Below, in pieces: positions 1-9,218 of a stretch of 27,323 bases of DNA. The DNA lies in IMG/VR virus record IMGVR_UViG_2693429713_000014; one strand, written 5' to 3'. This DNA comes from a virus (Duplodnaviria > Heunggongvirae > Uroviricota > Caudoviricetes). The translations under genes and the position numbers were made by a program. Under the pieces are notes generated by a model. That model was given only the letters and a program-made list of their open reading frames with translations. It was not told the DNA's origin and ran no database searches. The stretch's first letter is position 1. Each line of letters opens with the position of its first letter.

Positions 1-405
1 ATGGATCAGGTCGTTGTTTTTCAAAAGATGTTTGAGCAAGTGAGAAAAGAGCAAAACTTCTCCTGGTTTTATTCAGAATTAAAACATCACCGTATTGCAC
101 ATTACATTTATTATCTGGCTACGGATAACATCAGAATTATTACTCACGATGACACGGTTTTGTTATTAAGAGGAACCAGGAACCTGTTAAAAGTTAGTAC
201 GACCAAGAACCCTGCTAAAATAAAAGAGGCCGCATTGCTTCATATTTGCGGAAAATCTACATTTCGGGAATACTGTTCAACACTAGCAGGCGCGGGCGTT
301 TTCCGGTGGGTTACTGATGTTAATCATAACAAACGCAGTTACTACGCCATTGATAATACGCTTTTATATATTGAAGATGTAGAAAATAATAAACCATTAA
401 TCTAG
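1..405 (+). CDS. YcgX-like hypothetical protein (chromosomal flank)
   Basis: 134-aa ORF from the track, starting at window position 1. AT-rich. Sits next to iraM as ycgX does in K-12; identity assigned by synteny and recalled size, not verified. Confidence 0.55.
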   Translation: MDQVVVFQKMFEQVRKEQNFSWFYSELKHHRIAHYIYYLATDNIRIITHDDTVLLLRGTRNLLKVSTTKNPAKIKEAALLHICGKSTFREYCSTLAGAGVFRWVTDVNHNKRSYYAIDNTLLYIEDVENNKPLI

Positions 406-616
406 CTAAAGTTGGATGCTTAAGAAATGCTTCATAATTCAGTAAGGCATTAGCATAATGGGAATAAAAGTACAGAGACTATCCCTATGGATGATAAATA
501 CTGTCCTTTTATTGCTACCCATAAATAATCACCATGCCAATACTATCAAATTGATATTTGAAATGTGATCACTTGACTTTCTATACGTTATTTTATAACG
601 GTTAATATATTTATAA

Positions 617-664
617 AAACAACGGGTGTGCCATACGCCCGTTTCAATACTTAACGCACATGTG
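617..664. repeat. Terminator-like hairpin element, copy 1 (orphan copy of the icd terminator-like repeat)
   Basis: Stem aacgggtg / cgcccgtt (621-628 and 636-643) with a 7-nt loop and a T-run on the minus strand. About 85% identical over about 45 bp to the element at 1477-1523. Confidence 0.45.
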
Positions 665-1100
665 TTTTGGTTTAGTCATCATCCAGTTATATGTATTTTA
701 GCCAGGAACAGGTTAAACCTTTCCTATATAACTCAAAAATTGAAACCTTATTCTCATGTCATGCTTATATTCATTATTATCGTTATATAAAAAGGCAACC
801 ATAATGTTTAGCAAATTGGCACAAAGTAGCATAAAGGCTATGTTTTAATTACAGGATGTTCAGTCATTTGAATGTATAACATTATAGCTAAACAAATCTA
901 AAACGAAGTGAATAATTTATTGTTTTCACTAAATCTCATTTTGTTTAACATCCATTGAGATTCCTTGCTTTAAATTTTGTTTTATATAAGCAATCGTTTT
1001 AATTAATTTATTTTTTGAAGGGGTAATATACTCATATGCAAAATAAAGAAATGAACATCCAAATGAAGTATATTAAATACCGTGGGATAAGACATAACAA

Positions 1101-1424
1101 ATGAAGTGGATAGTAATTGACACGATAATTCAACCTTCATGCGGCATATCTTTTTCAGCCATATGGGGTAATATGAAAATGATCATCTGGTATCAATCTA
1201 CTATATTTCTCCCTCCTGGCAGTATATTTACACCGGTTAAATCTGGAATTATCCTTAAAGATAAAGAATATCCTATTACTATTTATAACATCGCACCATT
1301 CAACAAGGATTTATGGAGTCTACTCAAAAGCAGTCAAGAGTGTCCTCCAGGAGAAAGAAAAATAACAAATAAATGTTTGCATAATAGTTGCATTATAAAA
1401 ATATGCCCATATGGGCTCAAGTAA
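1101..1424 (+). CDS. iraM: Anti-adaptor protein IraM (RssB inhibitor)
   Basis: 107-aa ORF beginning MKWIVIDT, matching recalled IraM length and sequence. Lies immediately beside the icd 3' fragment as in K-12. Confidence 0.75.
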
Positions 1425-1476
1425 AGGGTTTTATATAAATATGCTCGATATGCTATTAATAGTACCTACATAAATA

Positions 1477-1523
1477 AAACAACGGGCGTGTTATACGCCC
1501 GTTGCAATATTAAACACATGTAG
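1477..1523 (-). terminator. Intrinsic terminator hairpin downstream of the icd 3' fragment (repeat copy 2)
   Basis: Stem aacgggcg / cgcccgtt (1481-1488 and 1496-1503) followed on the minus strand by GTTTTATTTA. Sits just after the icd-fragment stop at 1527-1529. Confidence 0.55.
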
Positions 1524-1526
1524 TGA

Positions 1527-1694
1527 TTACATGTTCTTGATGATCGCATCACCAAATTCTGAACATTTCAGCAGTTTAGCGCCTTCCATCAGACGCTCGA
1601 AGTCATAGGTTACGGTCTTCGCATTGATTGCGCCTTCCATACCTTTAACAATCAGGTCTGCGGCTTCAGTCCAGCCCATATGGCGTAACAGTAG
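1527..1694 (-). pseudogene. icdC: 3' fragment of isocitrate dehydrogenase gene (icdC-like), prophage attachment-site remnant
   Basis: Minus-strand translation gives [54 protein letters not shown]-stop, matching the Icd C-terminus. There is an in-frame stop just upstream at 1695-1697 and no N-terminal part. Confidence 0.85.
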
Positions 1695-2135
1695 TTAGAT
1701 GGTTCATATACAACCGCATGATAAATAAAAATAATCCTATAATTTTATTGTAAATCAACTGGCTTTTATCTTTCCCCTAACCTATTGATTATCAATGTAT
1801 GTTTTTTGGTTTTGATAACCGTTTTAGAGGGCAAAAACAAGTGCCTGTACCTATCAGCCCCTTCACGGCAAAGGGATTTTAAATCATGCGTGTTTTCACA
1901 AACTATCAATGGCTTAACTAAATTTTTCGCCAATAACGTACGCTGTGAGTGAGAGGTGGATATGAAGTTACACACTCCCGGAAAATAAAGAATTGAGCGT
2001 TATCTCATGCTATTAATGAAAAGTGTTTGCTTAATAGATTACATATAACTATGATTCAAGCCCAATTAAAGTCGTGTGTCTTTGGCTTAAATTGGCAAAC
2101 AAACAATCAAGTCAAGAATATAAAGGAACTATTCA

Positions 2136-3104
2136 ATGAATAAGAATTATAAAACGTTTAAACTTGAACTATGGGAGAAGTTTAAGCATCAATGTGCTTA
2201 CTGTGGCACTAAACTTTATGAACCATTGATGGCGGATGTTGATCGTTTTTTCCCAAAATCAAAGTATACTGACTTCCAAGATGCTACAGACAACCTGCTC
2301 ATCGCTTGTAAGGCATGTAGCATGATTAAAAAAGATCAGTTTCCTCTCGATGAAAATGGCAAACCATTACTTCTAAATCCTTTAAATGAAAGTTTTTCAG
2401 AACATATAAAACAAAATAAAAATGGATATTTAGAAGGTTTAACTGAGCGAGGACATGCGACTATAGATATATTACAGTTGAATAGACCTTCATTAATTGA
2501 ACAGCGCATTCTAGATGTTATTGATATGCAGTACTCTGATGATCGAACGCTATCTGAACGAGATGTCTATATGACATTCCAAAATAGTATGCAGAACGCC
2601 ATAAAACTAAATGATGCTCAGTTAAAAATTGATAGCACTTTACAAATACAAATGTCGTATATGCTATATGCCAATACAATAACTTCCTTGGAAACATATT
2701 TATGTGACAGATTTATTTCCCTAATTCATGGTAGCCAAACTAATTTGAGAAATTTTGTTGAAACCTTCAAAGATTACAATACAGAAAAATTCTTACTTTC
2801 TGAATTATTTATAAGGCATGAACAAATAGAGTCTCAAGCGATAGAGTCTATGAAGAGTGTTCTTTATCATAATCTGCCAAAAGTAAGTGGCATGTATCGA
2901 GATACCTTTGGTATTAAATTCCCTGTTTTCACAGAAGTTTATAAAAGCGTGTTAATTAGGCATGACTTAGTTCATCGAGCAGGTAAAACAAAAAATGGTA
3001 ATTTTCATAAGTTAGATTCAGAGTCAGTTAAAGATGTTATCAAAAAATGCTGTGACTTGGTTGAAAAACTAGAAAAAGAGCTTAAAGATTGTGCATCATT
3101 CTAG
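2136..3104 (+). CDS. Hypothetical protein with N-terminal degenerate HNH-like zinc-finger motif and uncharacterised C-terminal domain
   Basis: 322-aa ORF with an AGGA-type RBS. Residues 20-66 read CAYC...DVDRFFP...DNLLIACKAC, i.e. the C-x2-C ... N ... C-x2-C scaffold of HNH with Arg where the catalytic His is expected. AT-rich codon usage. C-terminal region contains R-x4-H (RHDLVH, aa 275-280). Confidence 0.6.
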   Translation: MNKNYKTFKLELWEKFKHQCAYCGTKLYEPLMADVDRFFPKSKYTDFQDATDNLLIACKACSMIKKDQFPLDENGKPLLLNPLNESFSEHIKQNKNGYLEGLTERGHATIDILQLNRPSLIEQRILDVIDMQYSDDRTLSERDVYMTFQNSMQNAIKLNDAQLKIDSTLQIQMSYMLYANTITSLETYLCDRFISLIHGSQTNLRNFVETFKDYNTEKFLLSELFIRHEQIESQAIESMKSVLYHNLPKVSGMYRDTFGIKFPVFTEVYKSVLIRHDLVHRAGKTKNGNFHKLDSESVKDVIKKCCDLVEKLEKELKDCASF

Positions 3105-3286
3105 GTAATTGCCACCAAATCGAAGGTGATCGCGCTTGCGGTCACCAAAAGTAATAAACTATTCATTCCCATTCGATCATCTGAACCAACACAATTTTAT
3201 TTAATAAAGTTGACCTACTTCATTATTTGATACCCATCCAATGTGCGCAAGGGCTGCTTCTGGCACATGGTTACCCTTGATGAGAA

Positions 3287-3417
3287 GGTAGATCACCGCC
3301 ATGGGGTGTCGGGGGCGGAGGTTCAAATCCTCTCGTGCTGACCAAAAATCCTCGAAGAACCAGCCTGTTACGGCTGGTTTTTTTTGCCTGTTTTCTGAAC
3401 GGGGAAGCAATGGGGAA
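3287..3417 (+). repeat. Direct repeat A: 3' ~58 nt of a tRNA-Pro gene (no 5' half) plus downstream terminator and flank
   Basis: 3287-3344 reads ggtag..caccgccatggggtgtcgggggcggaggttcaaatcctctcgtgctgacca: T-arm GGTTCAAATCC, acceptor 3' strand, CCA end. Matches recalled E. coli tRNA-Pro 3' portion. No complementary acceptor 5' strand upstream. Confidence 0.7.
3360..3385 (+). terminator. Rho-independent terminator within repeat A
   Basis: Hairpin ccagcc-tgtta-cggctgg followed by eight T residues. Confidence 0.6.
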
Positions 3418-3607
3418 ATTAGCTTACGGTTGACCCCACTGCGAAAAGCGCAGATTTTTATCAATGGACGTACATAGGGTAGATAAGGCACAATACTGCT
3501 TCAATGTCGTCTGATGGTATTGTAATACTAATTACATCAGATGATTTAACTAGATTAGTTCTTTATAGAAATCATTCTTGAATATTAATTGGCTGACTGA
3601 GGTTTTT

Positions 3608-4393
3608 ATGGATGAAAAATACAGAAGATTTGTTGATGAGGTTGACTTTTCAAGACAATTATTAGGCATAGGGCTCACTTCCCTAAGGAAAGCAAATTTT
3701 GCAAGTAGAGGATTGTATTTTCAAGCATTATCCGGCATCAGTTTAGGATTAGAAAGGCTTATGAAACTTTGCCTTATGCTTGATGATTATAATAAAAATG
3801 GAAAATATACATCACGCAAAAAATTAAGAGATTACGGTCATAACTTAAGCAAGTTATTCAACCTAGTCATTGAGAGAGTTGATTCTCCCTCTGGCTTAAA
3901 TGAAATTCACTACAGAGTGATGGAGTTGTTAACTAATTTTGCAAATTCATCAAGATATAGTAATATTGATTTCATTACTAATGACAACGACAATGATCCC
4001 ATGAAGCAATGGTATAATGAAATCGATAAGAGCATTTACGATGAAATATTAACAAAAAGACAAAAAAATATAATTGATAAAAAATGCGAGCAATACCGAA
4101 GCTATGGTGAAACACTGCCATGCTATGTGCTTGGATATTATGATGAAGACAGAAACCATATAAACTCTGCAGGGGATTTAAATTATTTACTTAAAAGAAG
4201 TGAAATGCTTGCTGGTTATCGCACTTTATTAGTTATTCATATCATAGAATGCATCTATAACATATTAGACTCAATGACAGTTCAAGCAAAAGATAATCAC
4301 TTCCACCATCTTGAATTAGGTCGTTTTTTTGCAACCATCATTTATGGCTCTGATAGAGACAAAATCAATAGAAAAAATTTTATCCGTATGTGA
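3608..4393 (+). CDS. Hypothetical protein (261 aa), AT-rich cargo gene flanked by the tRNA-fragment repeats
   Basis: Track ORF 3578..4393 begins with TTG. The ATG at 3608 has GAGG five nt upstream, so it is the preferred start. No recognisable family motifs. Confidence 0.55.
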   Translation: MDEKYRRFVDEVDFSRQLLGIGLTSLRKANFASRGLYFQALSGISLGLERLMKLCLMLDDYNKNGKYTSRKKLRDYGHNLSKLFNLVIERVDSPSGLNEIHYRVMELLTNFANSSRYSNIDFITNDNDNDPMKQWYNEIDKSIYDEILTKRQKNIIDKKCEQYRSYGETLPCYVLGYYDEDRNHINSAGDLNYLLKRSEMLAGYRTLLVIHIIECIYNILDSMTVQAKDNHFHHLELGRFFATIIYGSDRDKINRKNFIRM

Positions 4394-4471
4394 GACTACG
4401 AAGCGACCGACGAATGATGCTATCAACTTACTGTAGACGCATATAGGCCATCAGAATATTAGCACGACACT

Positions 4472-4588
4472 ATGGGGTGTCGGGGGGCGGAGGTTCAAAT
4501 CCTCTCGTGCCGACCAAAAATCCTCGAAGAACCAGCCTGTTACGGCTGGTTTTTTTGCCTGTTTTCTGAACGGGGAAGCAATGGGGAA
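4472..4588 (+). repeat. Direct repeat B: tRNA-Pro 3' fragment (~45 nt) plus terminator and flank
   Basis: Near-identical to repeat A over about 117 bp (atggggtgtcggggggcggaggttcaaatcctctcgtgccgacca + terminator + tgttttctgaacggggaagcaatgggga). Confidence 0.7.
4532..4556 (+). terminator. Rho-independent terminator within repeat B
   Basis: Same hairpin ccagcctgttacggctgg followed by seven T residues. Confidence 0.6.
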
Positions 4589-4790
4589 TTACAGGGGAAA
4601 AACCCCGTCAAATGTTGCCCCCGTATCGCTAGCACACAATGATTAAGTATCTTTTTCACTTTCGGAATTCATCAATTCACAAAACCATCATTCCGATTTA
4701 CCTTACATGCTCCTTTTAAATCTTTAACGGTGTGCACCACTTTTTCTAACTGCCCTATACTTTCAGTCTGACATACGGCTGGAGGTTTCT

Positions 4791-5459
4791 ATGTGTGGAC
4801 GCTTTTCACAGTCAATGACCCGTGAAGATTATCTTGCCCTTCTCGCTGATGAATCAGAACGCGATATTCCATACGATCCAGAACCCATCGGAAGATTCAA
4901 CGTAGCGCCAGGAACAAAAGTTCTGCTTCTGAGCGAACGTGATGAGCAGTTGCATCTTGATCCAGTTATCTGGGGATACGCCCCCGGTTGGTGGGATAAA
5001 CCGCCGCTCATTAATGCACGGTCTGAAACTGCTGCCACCAGCAGAATGTTTAAACCACTCTGGCAGCATGGCCGCGCAATTTGCTTTGCTGATGGATGGT
5101 ATGAGTGGAAAAAGGAAGGCGACCAAAAACAACCCTACTTTATTCACCGGGCAGACGGTCAGCCGATTTTTATGGCGGCGATCGGCAGCACACCATTCGA
5201 ACGTGGAGATGAAGCAGAAGGTTTCCTGATAGTTACAGCTGCAGCTGACAAAGGACTGGTTGATATTCACGACAGACGACCACTGGTACTGCTACCGGAA
5301 GCCGCGCGTGAATGGATGAGGCAGGATGTTGGAGGGAAAGAAGCAGCGGAAATTGCAGCCGACGGTGTTTTACCGGCTGATAAATTTATATGGCACGCCG
5401 TAACGCGTGCCGTCGGGAATGTGAAAAATCAGGGCGCCGAACTAATAACGCCAATATGA
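4791..5459 (+). CDS. SOS response-associated peptidase (SRAP/YedK family, abasic-site processing protein)
   Basis: 222-aa ORF beginning MCGRF (Cys2 nucleophile typical of SRAP) with GGAGG seven nt upstream. Length and sequence match recalled YedK-type proteins. Confidence 0.8.
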   Translation: MCGRFSQSMTREDYLALLADESERDIPYDPEPIGRFNVAPGTKVLLLSERDEQLHLDPVIWGYAPGWWDKPPLINARSETAATSRMFKPLWQHGRAICFADGWYEWKKEGDQKQPYFIHRADGQPIFMAAIGSTPFERGDEAEGFLIVTAAADKGLVDIHDRRPLVLLPEAAREWMRQDVGGKEAAEIAADGVLPADKFIWHAVTRAVGNVKNQGAELITPI

Positions 5460-5873
<414 letters not shown>

Positions 5874-5875
5874 GG

Positions 5876-6118
5876 CTAAAGTCCTCCGTTTGGATTGAAC
5901 AGCTGAAAGGTTCGGTTCTCGCCTTCCTGCGTTGATACATCGCGGAATGTTGTCACATAACATTCTATCCAATCGTTGGCCTGCTTCATCGTCCAGTGCC
6001 AGTTAACCTTACCCAGTTCCTGGACAAACCGCTGTGTGGTGACAGTCTTCCGGCCATTCGGTTCTCGCTGTATCGAAGCATGCCAGGCTATTTCAATATC
6101 GCTACGTTGTGGCATCAT
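5876..6118 (-). CDS. Small hypothetical protein (81 aa) immediately upstream of the UmuD'-like gene
   Basis: ATGATG at 6118-6113 preceded by aagaagggg RBS. Stop at 5876-5878 lies 2 nt before the UmuD'-like start, suggesting an operon. Function unknown. Confidence 0.45.
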   Translation of the reverse strand: MMPQRSDIEIAWHASIQREPNGRKTVTTQRFVQELGKVNWHWTMKQANDWIECYVTTFRDVSTQEGENRTFQLFNPNGGL

Positions 6119-6135
6119 TAACCCCTTCTTGAACA

Positions 6136-6175
6136 CTGGATAAAAAAACAGCATAAGCACTGTGTATCCATCCAG
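6136..6175. promoter_or_regulatory. Two putative LexA (SOS) boxes in the divergent promoter region
   Basis: CTGGATAAAAAAACAG (6136-6151) and CTGTGTATCCATCCAG (6160-6175) both fit CTG-N10-CAG with an AT-rich spacer. They lie between the divergent start codons at 6118 and 6193. Confidence 0.5.
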
Positions 6176-6192
6176 TAAAGAGGCAATAAGCA

Positions 6193-6435
6193 ATGTTCGT
6201 GGAACTCGTTTATGACAAAAGGAATTTTGATGGCCTGCCCGGTGCAAAAGATATCATTCTGGGCGAATTGACTAAGAGGGTTCACCGGGTCTTCCCTGAT
6301 GCTGATGTCCGGGTAAAACCGATGATGACACTGCCGGCGATCAACACTGACGCCAGCAAGCATGAGAAGGAACAGATAAGCCGTACTGTTCAGGAAATGT
6401 TTGAAAAGGCTGATATGTGGCTGGTTTCAGATTAA
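6193..6435 (+). CDS. DinI-family DNA-damage-inducible protein
   Basis: 80-aa ORF ending ...MFEKADMWLVSD, resembling the DinI C-terminus (...ESADDWFVSE). RBS aagagg upstream. Confidence 0.75.
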   Translation: MFVELVYDKRNFDGLPGAKDIILGELTKRVHRVFPDADVRVKPMMTLPAINTDASKHEKEQISRTVQEMFEKADMWLVSD

Positions 6436-6563: not shown

Positions 6564-7115
6564 TCAACGCCGCGCAGGAAATTTTTTGTATAGCGTCGAC
6601 ACCCCTACATCATAAATTATAGCCACACGTTTTCTAGACTCACCTGCAGCAATCAACCTTCCAGCCTGAGCCCACTCTTCTGCGGTTAACTTTGGTCGTC
6701 TGCCGCCGATCCGACCATCTTCGCGCGCAGCAGCTAAGCCAGCCCGTGTTCGCTCAACAATAAGCTCTCTTTCCATCTCGGCAAGCGCCCCCATGACATG
6801 AAAGAAAAAGCGCCCCATTGGTGTTGAGGTATCTATACTGTCGGTCAGGCTACGGAAGTTTACCCCTCGCTCCCTCATTTCTTCGACCAGCACGACAAGA
6901 TGCCGCATGCTGCGACCGAGGCGATCCAGCTTCCATACCACCAGCGTATCGCCTTCTGATAGCGTCCTGAGCACTTTTTTTAATCCTGGTCTGTCGGACA
7001 CCTTACCGCTGATCTTATCTTCGAAAATCAGTTCACATCCTGCACACTCGAGCGCGTTTCTTTGCAATGCTGTGTTCTGGTCATTTGTTGATACGCGAAC
7101 ATAGCCAATAAGCAT
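6564..7115 (-). CDS. pin: Serine recombinase, Pin/Gin/Hin-family DNA invertase
   Basis: N-terminus MLIGYVRVSTNDQN with the catalytic Ser motif; closely resembles e14 Pin. Start set at the internal Met (7115) with a GGGG RBS rather than the track start at 7151. Confidence 0.9.
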   Translation of the reverse strand: MLIGYVRVSTNDQNTALQRNALECAGCELIFEDKISGKVSDRPGLKKVLRTLSEGDTLVVWKLDRLGRSMRHLVVLVEEMRERGVNFRSLTDSIDTSTPMGRFFFHVMGALAEMERELIVERTRAGLAAAREDGRIGGRRPKLTAEEWAQAGRLIAAGESRKRVAIIYDVGVSTLYKKFPARR

Positions 7116-7170
7116 GGTAGATCCCCCTGACAAAAGCAGGAATGATGCCATTTGCTCGTTATTTCTGCAT

Positions 7171-7200
7171 TTTCATAAACGTTGGTTTGGGAGAAGGTGC
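7171..7200. repeat. Invertase crossover site, left (inverted repeat partner of 8911-8940)
   Basis: tttcataaacgttggtttgggagaaggtgc. The 19-bp core ttggtttgggagaaggtgc (7182-7200) is a perfect inverted repeat of 8911-8929, and 25 of 30 positions match over the extended site. Confidence 0.7.
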
Positions 7201-7477
7201 TAACTGGGTTATGTTACCTGGAGGAATGATAATTCAGCGTGTTTATCTTGGATTTCCTATTGGCACTAATGTAAGACATATAACTTTCCCCCGGTCGTTT
7301 ACAACAACGAACTATTCCATCTCAATTAACTGGAATGATATCGGTACTGTAACAACTGAAACACAATCACCAGCAAATGTGGCGGTTGTTCATCAAACAA
7401 AATCATTAACAGGGGCCAGCATCTGGCAGGCAGGTCCCGGGGGATTTAATGTGGACATTATAGCGGTGGGGTATTGA
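7182..7477 (+). CDS. Alternative tail-fibre C-terminal cassette (silent in this orientation; no own start)
   Basis: Reading frame continues through the crossover core, encoding GLGEGA as in the expressed fibre. Followed directly by an alternative Tfa gene. Mirrors the Sv' arrangement of Mu G / e14 P segments. Confidence 0.55.
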
Positions 7478-7478
7478 T

Positions 7479-7907
7479 ATGTACGTATGGAGCGCTAAAG
7501 CAAATGGCTTTTTCCCCATATCGGAGAAAGAAAAATTTGAGGCATCAGGTCTGTGGCCTGATGATGGTGTAATAGTCAGTGAGGAAGAACATAAAAAGTT
7601 ATTTATGGATATTCCACCAGGAAAACAGATTGGAACACTGAATGGAAAACCAGCACTGATAGATATTCCTCAGCCGACCAAAAAGGAATTAATAGCTATT
7701 GCTGAAGTTAAAAAATCCCAATTACGGGAAAAGGCTGACAGTGAAATATCCTGGCGTCAGGATGCTGTTGATGCTGATATCGCAACTGATGAAGAAGCTA
7801 CAACTCTCACCCAATGGAAGAAATACCGTGTGCTGCTGATGCGTGTTGATACGTCAACAGCACCCGATATTGAATGGCCTACGCCTCCGGCAGTTCAGGC
7901 CAGATGA
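7479..7907 (+). CDS. Tail fibre assembly protein (alternative copy, Tfa')
   Basis: 142-aa ORF with a Tfa-like C-terminus (...WKKYRVLLMRVDTSTAPDIEWPTPP) similar to the minus-strand Tfa. Confidence 0.75.
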   Translation: MYVWSAKANGFFPISEKEKFEASGLWPDDGVIVSEEEHKKLFMDIPPGKQIGTLNGKPALIDIPQPTKKELIAIAEVKKSQLREKADSEISWRQDAVDADIATDEEATTLTQWKKYRVLLMRVDTSTAPDIEWPTPPAVQAR

Positions 7908-8472
7908 CATCCGGCGCGGTGCTGGTATCTGTTGCCGTCACCGCGTCAATGTAATCCAGCACGGCGTTAAGTCGGGTTGTTTCTGCCTGAGTCAGTTTCC
8001 GTCCGGCCTGTAATTTCAGCTGAATCAGACTAATGGAAGCCATTGCTGCATCAATCAGTGACTGGCGCTGTGCTTCTGCCGCGTCTACTGCGGCACTGTG
8101 TTGTGCCTCAGTGTCTGTCACCCATTTCTCACCATCCCATTTATCGTATGGCGTTAACGGTGAAAGCGTGACATAACCGTCTTTGATGGCACCGATATAA
8201 TCCACTGTAACAGCTGCACCATTTTCGATTGAGTAAACAGTCTCATTGCGATGGTCTTCCTCATGGCTCCATCCCTTACCTGTAAATACCGTCACTCTTC
8301 CCAGAATGTTTTCGCCCGGGTCAATACCAGTTGAACAGGCGGGCATACTTACGCCAGTATTAATATATTCATCAGACCAGCCCGTATACTCAGATGTTTC
8401 AGCATCATAATAAAAACAACGCATATCGCCCGGCACTGTAGCCAGCCCATTTTCATCAAAAACAGGTTTCAT
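7879..8472 (-). CDS. Tail fibre assembly protein (Tfa, currently expressed orientation)
   Basis: 197-aa ORF; C-terminus ...DTSTAPDVIWPELPEA. Start overlaps the fibre gene stop. Confidence 0.75.
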   Translation of the reverse strand: MKPVFDENGLATVPGDMRCFYYDAETSEYTGWSDEYINTGVSMPACSTGIDPGENILGRVTVFTGKGWSHEEDHRNETVYSIENGAAVTVDYIGAIKDGYVTLSPLTPYDKWDGEKWVTDTEAQHSAAVDAAEAQRQSLIDAAMASISLIQLKLQAGRKLTQAETTRLNAVLDYIDAVTATDTSTAPDVIWPELPEA

Positions 8473-9218
8473 TATTTAGCCCTCACCAGAAAGTTAAATG
8501 CAATATTTCGCGGTCTGACAGCAACAAAATTCACACCATCACCCACAGAGTTACTGGTGAAATTAAATCGTGAAAATCCTGGCTGATTTCCGGCGATGCC
8601 ATCATGAAAGTTAATTGCGTGTCCCGCACCTTCGCCTATATTCCCGGCAAACTGAGAAAAGTTTGTAGCTGCCTGCCAACTTAATAATTCGCGACCACCA
8701 TCTGCACCTCGCCCGTCATCCCAGACACGAATGAAATCACCGCGTGCGTCAGGTAATGCCAACGCCGGAAACACTTTCGCCAGCACAGGGTAATCAGTGG
8801 CAGAAAATTTCGCCCCGTTGAACTTCAAAAACACCATACTGGACCAGCTGTCGATTACAGTATTTGGCATTGCAGCGGACGCCCAGAAGAACGGAACACC
8901 AATAGCTGGAGCACCTTCTCCCAAACCAAGGTTTTCGAGAGCCGTTTTCACCGTGCCATCCGATTTGATATCGCCAAACGGATTCTTGCGGCTTAACAGC
9001 AGCGCACGAAGCGCTGTAAGCAGCTGGTCATGCCGCCCCTTCTCCAGGCTGGCACCGGATACCTCCACAACACTGCAAAGTTCCTCCTGCAACATGTCAA
9101 AGTAGTCATCATCCAGATCGGTGGCAGGTGTGCCGGTCTGGGGGTTACCACGGGTAAAACCGTTCTTACCCGCGCCGAACTTATCCTTCTGCGCGGTTTT
9201 CGTGTCTATACGATGCAT
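8472..9218 (-). CDS. Tail fibre protein (constant N-terminal part plus variable C-terminal part inside the invertible segment)
   Basis: 248-aa ORF. The crossover site lies within it at 8911-8940, encoding LGLGEGA. Confidence 0.7.
8911..8940. repeat. Invertase crossover site, right
   Basis: gcaccttctcccaaaccaaggttttcgaga, the reverse complement of the left site core. Confidence 0.7.

Follow-up and report, generated by a model that had tools for sequence, protein, structure and literature searches.

How a single gene came to lie between two nearly identical pieces of a tRNA gene at one end of a prophage, and what its product does there, is the question raised by the IMG/VR virus record IMGVR_UViG_2693429713_000014 (27,323 nucleotides (nt), one strand; the whole stretch is called the window, and all coordinates refer to it). 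The gene (3608-4393, plus strand; WP_032162445.1) encodes a protein of 261 amino acids (aa) and is flanked by two direct repeats derived from tRNA-Pro. The window matches chromosomes of Escherichia coli, with an annotated counterpart locus in strain C1, and represents the attR end (att, attachment site) of an icd-integrated prophage of the e14/SfV type. A preliminary description, made from the sequence without database searches, had seen in the gene an orphan within what looked like a captured cassette. The reading that best accounts for the evidence as a whole, and which we favor with somewhat better than middling confidence, is that of a single-gene, probably RNA-targeting anti-phage effector that was captured at a relic att site.

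The duplicated tRNA-Pro block

The arrangement around the gene is given below, with L1 and L2 denoting left arms and R1 and R2 right arms; the numbers L001 to L084 are labels of compared loci.

3254-3300, plus strand: L1, family-typical left arm, a diverged pseudo-tRNA-Pro 5′ half, alignable with the sequence to the left of the lone core in L013, L017, L020, L025 and L046
3301-3417, plus strand: core copy 1, comprising the 3′ part of tRNA-Pro(GGG), a terminator at about 3354-3384 and then 33 nt of phage-type sequence
3418-3607, plus strand: R2, insert-specific right arm with a hairpin and the upstream/promoter region of the gene (3531-3607)
3608-4393, plus strand: 261-aa gene (WP_032162445.1; ATG at 3608, TGA ending at 4393), product predicted to be all-alpha and HEPN-like
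4394-4471, plus strand: L2, insert-specific left arm, its last approximately 38 nt resembling a strongly diverged L arm; no BLAST match elsewhere, partial similarity to L arms in alignments
4472-4588, plus strand: core copy 2, with the terminator at 4526-4555
4589-4790, plus strand: R1, family-typical arm between the core and the gene for SRAP (SOS-response-associated peptidase), 82-95% identical in 14 loci including L002 and L003 (there following an intact proL gene)

The two cores (3301-3417 and 4472-4588) measure 117/118 nt and are 97.5% identical, with three differences (one indel in a run of G, one C/T change, one indel in a run of T), a longest exact shared run of 45 nt and a spacing of 1171-1172. 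This similarity is far beyond chance, and it bears out the near-identical tRNA-fragment repeats of about 120 bp reported in the preliminary description. According to an alignment with proL of other E. coli strains, each copy starts at nt 33 of the 77-nt proL tRNA-Pro(GGG) gene, in the anticodon loop, runs to the GACCA of the CCA end, and continues for 72 nt more through the terminator hairpin. Neither copy is a functional tRNA gene. ARAGORN returned 0 intact tRNA or transfer-messenger RNA genes in the window and Rfam at its gathering threshold nothing; under relaxed settings, Rfam gave a tRNA match of 20.9 bits, compared with a gathering score of 29, at 3279-3333, covering only copy 1 and its left flank. 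The L1 arm corresponds to the 5′ half of the tRNA in diverged form and contains an insertion of 8 nt. Together with the core (3254-3333) it forms an almost full-length pseudo-tRNA-Pro, which is conserved across the phage family.

Of 5,426 complete E. coli genomes, eight show this arrangement at 99.5-100% identity, their sources being unrelated (human, cow, chicken, pigeon, meat); three IMG/VR contigs have it as well. An assembly artefact, considered in the preliminary description, is ruled out by this identical structure in complete genomes from different sources; with 117 nt at 97.5% identity, the probability that artefact or chance similarity explains the repeats is negligible. In these genomes and contigs, the gene is indeed found again between tRNA-Pro fragments, as had been proposed for a check, but its homologues in other genomes lack such fragments.

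The nature of the block becomes clear from prophages integrated at proL in other E. coli strains, in which an intact tRNA-Pro gene precedes the 270 nt and the SRAP gene known from the window. The stretch from copy 2 to SRAP in the window is collinear with, and 93% identical to, the stretch from proL to SRAP in these relatives; because of this collinearity, the block downstream of the anticodon loop is assigned to the phage-borne side of a proL-type attachment site. Rather than generic tRNA debris, the repeats represent a relic phage att core of the proL type in two copies, a conserved landmark of the prophage family, and the single pseudo-tRNA-Pro(GGG) element of this family is the relic of a proL-type attachment site, or a secondary one. 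A scan with a 35-nt core pattern located the core in 59 IMG/VR phage loci, in 55 of them singly; the 1,172-nt double core of the window accounts for three of the 59, and a different double-core array for one (L019). None of the 18 core-bearing IMG/VR loci that were checked carries an intact tRNA. In strain 100181, the native proL terminator and the phage-borne terminator share about 86% identity.

Probable entry of the gene at the att relic

Loci with a single core read L1-core-R1 contiguously, with R1 leading to an SRAP or S24 gene (L013, L017, L020, L025, L046). The empty site L1-core-R1 is represented by L020, likewise integrated at icd, and in the same form by UTI89/UM146, in an ssrA-integrated relative. 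In the window, copy 1 reads L1-core-R2 and copy 2 reads L2-core-R1, such that both junctions are hybrids relative to the empty site. The order L1-core-R2...L2-core-R1 therefore points to a single reciprocal exchange, located within the core, with a circular DNA bearing a related site, the insert amounting to 1,054 bp plus one core, or approximately 1.17 kb as a circle. With the empty site present in relatives and hybrid junctions around the insert, the suspected captured cassette is corroborated. The gene is bracketed by the repeats, although not “exactly” as first stated, with spacers of 190 nt upstream and 78 nt downstream.

The arms contributed by the insert are less familiar than those of the phage family. 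A small terminator-like hairpin lies in R2 at 3439-3453, and DNA homology to the Klebsiella copy of the gene (L004) extends over 3531-4382, i.e., the gene and 77 nt upstream of it; the remaining part of R2 (3418-3530) has no match in 77 loci. Searches with R2 and L2 returned nothing in these 77 loci, nor in E. coli beyond the same eight genomes. In alignments, both resemble strongly diverged versions of the family arms.

The position of the core boundary is informative with respect to its origin. L1, L2, and the left arm at attR of the proL prophage in strain 100181 are mutually unrelated, and all diverge exactly between C and ATGGGG in the anticodon loop, the very point at which the attL/attR identity of this genuine proL prophage begins. 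Since unrelated arms all diverge where proL attL/attR identity starts, it can be rationalized that the core boundary was set at some stage by a tRNA-type tyrosine integrase. Integrases using this crossover exist: the 7.08-kb IMG/VR element L060 (1-7232) is bounded by direct repeats of 100 nt (99% identical) starting at the same anticodon-loop position of tRNA-Pro. Besides a tyrosine integrase, this element codes for two HNH proteins, a HEPN/RES-domain protein, and an exonuclease resembling RNase T, and it probably represents a small defense island or satellite directed at proL. Within the insert (3418-4471), the only real open reading frame (ORF) is the 261-aa gene, which is devoid of a recombinase domain (ORF table, Pfam); the earlier remark that recombinase motifs are missing is thus correct for the insert. 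Neither inverted repeats at the cassette ends nor an integron integrase in the window were found. Because the insert encodes no recombinase, the crossover would have been made in trans. Insertion by recombination at the core, with the DNA entering as a circle through one crossover, by integrase or homologous recombination, is considered highly probable.

The following course of events can be envisaged. Phages of the family carry one L1-core-R1 relic element in their accessory zone. A circular DNA with L2-core-R2 and the 261-aa gene, either of approximately 1.17 kb or the remainder of something larger, would have recombined once, and reciprocally, inside the 117-bp core to yield L1-core-R2-gene-L2-core-R1. 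The enzyme acting in trans may have been the proL-specific tyrosine integrase of another, co-resident element; alternatively, RecA or phage functions may have brought about homologous recombination across the core. The tRNA fragments would be left as scars of the recombination and contribute terminators, without being functional partners to the protein.

Several points weigh against this course of events. Neither the window nor the loci reveal an integrase or an excised circle, and an integrase and homologous recombination across 117 bp would leave identical products in the sequence. With R2 and L2 lacking a match anywhere searched, no donor was found. The cores have derived features in common (a T-run lacking the A), for which gene conversion, and not a recent crossover, could be responsible. 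Furthermore, by direct inspection L1 differs from the left arm at attR of the one proL prophage examined, that of strain 100181; L1 is therefore not callable as a canonical attP arm, and the supposed relic attP could instead be an attL that was captured, or a phage tRNA gene in decay.

The insert could also have begun as a complete proL-targeting integrative element with its own integrase, which entered the relic att site and was reduced by deletions to one cargo gene. Integrase-bearing elements bounded by the same core do exist, as seen for L060; R2 and L2 resemble att arms from a related element that have diverged; in other genomes, the gene is met as an ordinary accessory gene that no att repeats flank; and the DNA homology with Klebsiella covers less than the insert. 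However, neither pseudogene fragments nor matches to L060 or any other element are found in R2 or L2, all 11 independent records have the identical short form, and the product would be indistinguishable from the direct capture of a small circle. Decay of such an element is plausible, yet we regard it as the less likely course.

Among known systems, the capture of a small circle at the core can be compared with the accretion of att-bounded modules. Cis-mobilizable elements (CIMEs) and tandem accretion at one att site have been described for ICESt1/ICESt3 of Streptococcus thermophilus. As in CIMEs, an integrase-less segment is placed between direct att-derived repeats, in tandem with an integrase-bearing element, and multi-unit arrays exist. 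In contrast to CIMEs, the site is a relic copy inside an icd-integrated prophage and not a chromosomal tRNA gene, and the unit of approximately 1.1 kb carries a single gene. The array of the second type, L019 (1586-6144), contains a deleted SRAP remnant, a 252-aa gene, a first core (core_a), R1, SRAP, a 622-aa DUF7380/DUF4209 protein, and a second core (core_b), with the two cores 94% identical over 89 nt. It looks like a tandem accretion of modules of the form R1-SRAP-cargo-core, and as a second array type it indicates that the accretion of att-bounded modules is not unique to the 261-aa gene. Integron cassettes share with the insert the single-gene unit, the one recombination site per unit, and the lack of a recombinase of their own. 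The insert, on the other hand, has no imperfect inverted repeat of the attC type and no IntI/attI, and it brings along its own upstream region and a terminator together with a tRNA-type att core.

In e14, Lit and McrA are located at the pin-attR end. Similar to the hotspots of P2 (old/tin/fun), P2/P4, and e14, the att-proximal end of the prophage in the window houses an AT-rich accessory gene, with a nuclease gene as its neighbor; in contrast to the P2/P4 hotspots, the entry event is still legible here from the duplicated att core and the hybrid arms. For the P2/P4 hotspots, the recombination process “still needs to be elucidated” according to a 2026 survey (PMC13586616). How defense and accessory genes are swapped at hotspots is an acknowledged open question, and the present locus is a rare case with a readable entry event, for which the duplicated core, the hybrid arms, and relatives with an empty site provide the record, joined by an array of a second type and by an integrase-bearing element that shares the crossover point. 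The question of capture is directly testable in available strains, e.g., E. coli C1, AH01, and Ecol_545. The gene as such is a fairly ordinary kind of prophage cargo with an unusually clear capture record; neither this record nor the candidate effector family described below is surprising in kind.

The protein family, its fold and its company

The 261-aa gene is preceded by a ribosome-binding site (GAGG, 6 nt before the ATG at 3608) and has a G+C content of 31.9%, in agreement with the good ribosome-binding site and the AT-rich composition noted earlier. A longer ORF starting with TTG at 3578 was rejected, because every homologue begins at the same MDEKY; 3608 is therefore the real start. The ratio of nonsynonymous to synonymous substitution rates (dN/dS) is 0.07-0.11 versus the copies of Klebsiella, Proteus, Xenorhabdus, and an unassigned Logan contig (L077), and 0.2-0.3 versus more distant ones. 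Values of 0.07-0.30 versus five homologous genes identify a constrained coding gene.

The designation as an orphan without a family signature had to be abandoned, although curated models are still lacking. A word-indexed search gave 26 close clusters with 40-81% identity, all named “hypothetical,” from the Gammaproteobacteria E. coli, Pectobacterium, Klebsiella michiganensis, Xenorhabdus, Proteus, Aeromonas, Pantoea, and Gallibacterium. A HMMER profile search of 1.84 billion representatives extended the family to 1,139 clusters (counted at 50% identity) at E ≤ 1e-3, 650 of them at E ≤ 1e-10 and nearly all of 260-280 aa, with Pseudomonas and Streptomyces among the named distant members. For the protein and 57 diverse relatives, there was no significant match in Pfam, NCBIfam, PHROGs, or PADLOC, with HEPN and HEPN_AbiV appearing below threshold only; the homology search suggested at the outset thus returned a family, but no known curated one. 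A tblastn search of plasmids gave weak partial matches only (29-32% identity), a related-locus search with one alignment of the family led to a single Gallibacterium locus, and a literature search found no publication naming WP_032162445.

An AlphaFold2 model of good quality (predicted local distance difference test, pLDDT, 89.8; predicted template modeling score, pTM, 0.89) predicts an all-helical fold with a core resembling the four-helix up-down bundle of HEPN proteins, and an extra C-terminal helical half. Residues E11, G47, R50, R116, Y117, and W135 are invariant in the 57 relatives, and G22, E49, K53, H78, L108, F111, and N119 are nearly so. Judging from this conservation, the polar set E11, E49-R50-K53, H78, R116-Y117-N119, and W135 may take the place of the canonical Rx4-6H motif, the nearest approaches to which are [KR]74-x3-H78 and the invariant R116-Y-x-N without a following His. 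The Pfam HEPN match of the protein stays below threshold (E = 0.17; 12.5 bits compared with a cutoff of 22), weak matches to HEPN_AbiV were obtained for two of the 57 members (best E = 0.004), and a precomputed PF05168 match exists on the family cluster P0017. Foldseek searches of PDB and BFVD gave no significant match and a PDB sequence search with two family profiles nothing meaningful, which counts against a simple HEPN assignment. Many relatives of AbiV likewise have neither the canonical R/H conservation nor the Rx4-6H spacing (10.1101/2024.05.05.592566). Because the searches by fold and for the motif fail, while AbiV relatives are often non-canonical as well, the fold is termed HEPN-like and the chemistry putative.

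The homologues are found in varied company. In K. michiganensis, the gene is located in a P2-like prophage between gpS and gpV, and in Proteus in a P2-like prophage directly after ogr, 1.2 kb from the tRNA-Gly att site. In Xenorhabdus, it lies beside HicAB and phage remnants, in Pseudomonas next to TacA and Phd antitoxin genes, and in an enterobacterial island of the CP4-57 type next to an AAA_15/21 ATPase pair. The Gallibacterium homologue resides between hsdS and hsdR of a type I restriction-modification (R-M) operon, where it overlaps the hsdS stop codon; this is the only embedded instance seen. In two Streptomyces genomes (L074, 4302-7837; L081, 3300-6837), the homologue is the third gene, directly after a GajA/GajB-like pair consisting of an OLD/TOPRIM ABC ATPase and a short UvrD-like helicase, and this trio may be a three-gene variant of Gabija. 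Genes embedded in R-M or BREX operons are enriched for defense functions, and embedding is a validated predictor thereof (10.1101/2024.01.29.577857); P2 accessory and defense hotspots within tail genes and next to att have been documented (PMC13586616, PMC9122126). The convergent neighbors in Klebsiella (286 aa) and Proteus (234 aa) were considered as candidates for a conserved partner and rejected; as they are mutually unrelated, there is no conserved partner. No conserved flanking non-coding element extends beyond 77 nt upstream when the E. coli and Klebsiella copies are compared. Given the varied contexts and homology limited to the gene and these 77 nt, the gene is a self-contained module moving between accessory hotspots. 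No tRNA fragments or flanking repeats were found beside the homologues elsewhere, and the tRNA-Pro bracket is specific to this one capture event.

This distribution bears directly on the idea of a functional link between the protein and the tRNA-Pro fragments. Anticodon nucleases of the HEPN type have been described, and a pseudo-tRNA with a terminator is situated 190 nt upstream of the gene. Furthermore, AbiV works with an RNA antitoxin (10.1101/2024.05.05.592566). However, no homologue elsewhere adjoins a tRNA fragment or a flanking repeat, the same pseudo-tRNA core is present in approximately 55 related phage loci lacking the gene, and upstream conservation begins only at 3531. A functional link is thus largely refuted by the distribution of gene and core, and is accorded a very low probability.

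In the lysogen, the region upstream of the captured gene would drive its expression, and the two terminators borne by the att cores would insulate it. As fold and genomic context suggest, the protein may be an anti-phage effector that works as a single component by abortive infection, in broad analogy to AbiV and other HEPN RNases, and RNA would be cleaved or bound through a putative site formed by E11, E49-R50-K53, H78, and R116-Y-N. For the predicted defense role the balance is nearly even, with a slight lean in its favor; RNase chemistry, predicted on the same grounds, is proposed tentatively, at less than even odds. Compared with AbiV of Lactococcus (PDB 9bj5) and HEPN RNases such as the HepN toxin SO_3166 (PDB 5yep), the 261-aa protein has no significant HEPN match in Pfam and no Rx4-6H, but possesses E11, E49-R50-K53, H78, R116-Y-x-N, and the additional C-terminal half; in contrast to AbiV, neither an RNA antitoxin nor a protein partner is evident from sequence alone. 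With regard to PrrC/RloC and genes embedded in R-M systems, the Gallibacterium homologue occupies the classic position of PrrC between hsdS and hsdR (Payne et al. 2024, 10.1101/2024.01.29.577857), whereas the 261-aa protein has no ABC-type ATPase domain and the E. coli copy resides in a prophage, not in an R-M operon. Membership of the protein in AbiV, PrrC, or any PADLOC system could not be demonstrated, and the locus resembles the HEPN/Abi accessory genes of prophages and CIME-type accretion.

The gene might also be cargo without a defense function, its product being a counter-defense, regulatory, or non-catalytic nucleotide- or RNA-binding HEPN-like protein serving the prophage or the host. 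This appears rather doubtful to us, as the strictly conserved charged and polar constellation suggests catalysis, and as homologues are located between hsdS and hsdR, after Gabija-like genes, and in P2 accessory hotspots. The family is, moreover, absent from the INPHARED phage genomes, which argues against a general counter-defense role in phages. The same absence (no homologue by tblastn in 50,697 phage genomes) also has to be set against the effector proposed here, along with the following observations: no conserved Rx4-6H column exists in the 57 diverse members; PADLOC-DB v2 has 0 families for the protein and gives chance-level matches only among these members; and some homologues have housekeeping genes and no defense genes as neighbors, the Pasteurellaceae copies lying between aspS and nudB and one copy after a peptide deformylase gene. 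With more than 1,000 clusters lacking models, a HEPN-like fold with a non-canonical site, and recurring contexts of the defense type, the 261-aa family is nevertheless a reasonable candidate for a new family of single-gene anti-phage effectors. A more far-reaching proposal would make the att relic a true cargo-docking site, at which promoter-bearing mini-circles of approximately 1-3.5 kb, with one core and one or two genes each, are exchanged in an integron-like manner by a trans-acting proL-type integrase, and would make the 261-aa protein the founder of a widespread HEPN-like RNase defense family with a non-canonical active site; this combination we consider improbable.

The prophage and other core-bearing loci

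The order of genes in the window was taken from the annotation of strain C1 together with Pfam/NCBIfam family scans. The features outside the duplicated block are as follows.

1-405: ycgX (C1 annotation/family scans)
1101-1424: iraM (C1 annotation/family scans)
1527-1694, minus strand: 3′ remnant of icd, a pseudogene of the icdC type that marks the attR boundary (truncated isocitrate dehydrogenase in C1; megablast mapping; sequence read directly)
2136-3104, plus strand: PtuB-like HNH endonuclease, neighboring cargo outside the insert (PADLOC PtuB, 1e-23; NCBIfam PtuB, 7e-8; phrog_29321, 3e-19)
4791-5459, plus strand: SRAP, resident phage gene 3′ of the att relic (Pfam SRAP, 8e-51; NCBIfam PRK09951)

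SRAP is followed by genes for an S24 peptidase, DinI, Pin invertase, and tail fiber, and by Mu-type tail and HK97-type head genes up to the end of the window; the HK97-type head, the Mu-type tail, and the Pin invertase are the hallmarks of the prophage according to the C1 annotation and the family scans. The accessory-gene zone lies between the icd remnant and the SRAP gene. The G+C content is approximately 32% over 1-4500, in comparison with approximately 55% in the phage body. When the loci were oriented on the core and their ORFs clustered, the downstream genes proved conserved (SRAP, UmuC/UmuD-like or S24, DinI); directly upstream of the core, dozens of unrelated singleton genes across the prophage family constitute hypervariable cargo, exemplified by the HNH-HEPN gene in the window, a GIY-YIG nuclease with a DUF262 protein in UTI89, and DUF7380/DUF4209 proteins. 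Two further ORFs on the minus strand were judged spurious, one at 3201-3491, which overlaps the att core and has no homology, and one at 1766-1975, equally without homology.

The HNH gene at 2136-3104 shows a weak C-terminal HEPN domain of the RiboL-PSP type (Pfam HEPN_RiboL-PSP, 0.009). The nuclease stands alone, without the PtuA ATPase partner, and it always co-occurs with the 261-aa cassette (eight genomes, L016, L049, and L069). A two-gene system of both proteins was considered and rejected, because a comparison of the 261-aa family with the HNH-HEPN protein by hhalign shows no kinship. The position of the HNH gene is that of McrA in e14, which carries mcrA at the same end.

Other core-bearing loci illustrate the diversity of the cargo. 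In the proL-integrated prophage of strain 100181 (L084, 12827-15551), two hypothetical cargo genes lie between int and attR. In the ssrA-integrated prophages of UM146/UTI89 (L012/L013, 4100-10000), a single pseudo-tRNA-Pro core is found amid nuclease-type cargo, with a LEM-3-like GIY-YIG protein and a DUF262 (GmrSD-like) protein; the DinI gene there is decayed and the Pin gene truncated. The protein of 262 aa that UTI89 encodes at the corresponding position is not homologous to the 261-aa protein.

Strain C1 and the window differ between ycgX and the icd remnant, where the window has iraM and C1 an IS200/IS605 transposase (window 618-1475 versus L001). An SOS-linked accessory block (4791-6435) adjoins the att relic, with SRAP, a short S24/UmuD-like peptidase, and DinI; the short peptidase is annotated as frameshifted in C1, and relatives have a full UmuC-UmuD pair at this place. 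In C1 and LP50-1, the SRAP gene is interrupted by IS421. Further downstream, at 6564-9218, a Pin-type serine invertase lies between oppositely oriented ORFs for tail fiber and tail-fiber assembly, forming an invertible host-range segment similar to those of e14 and Mu.

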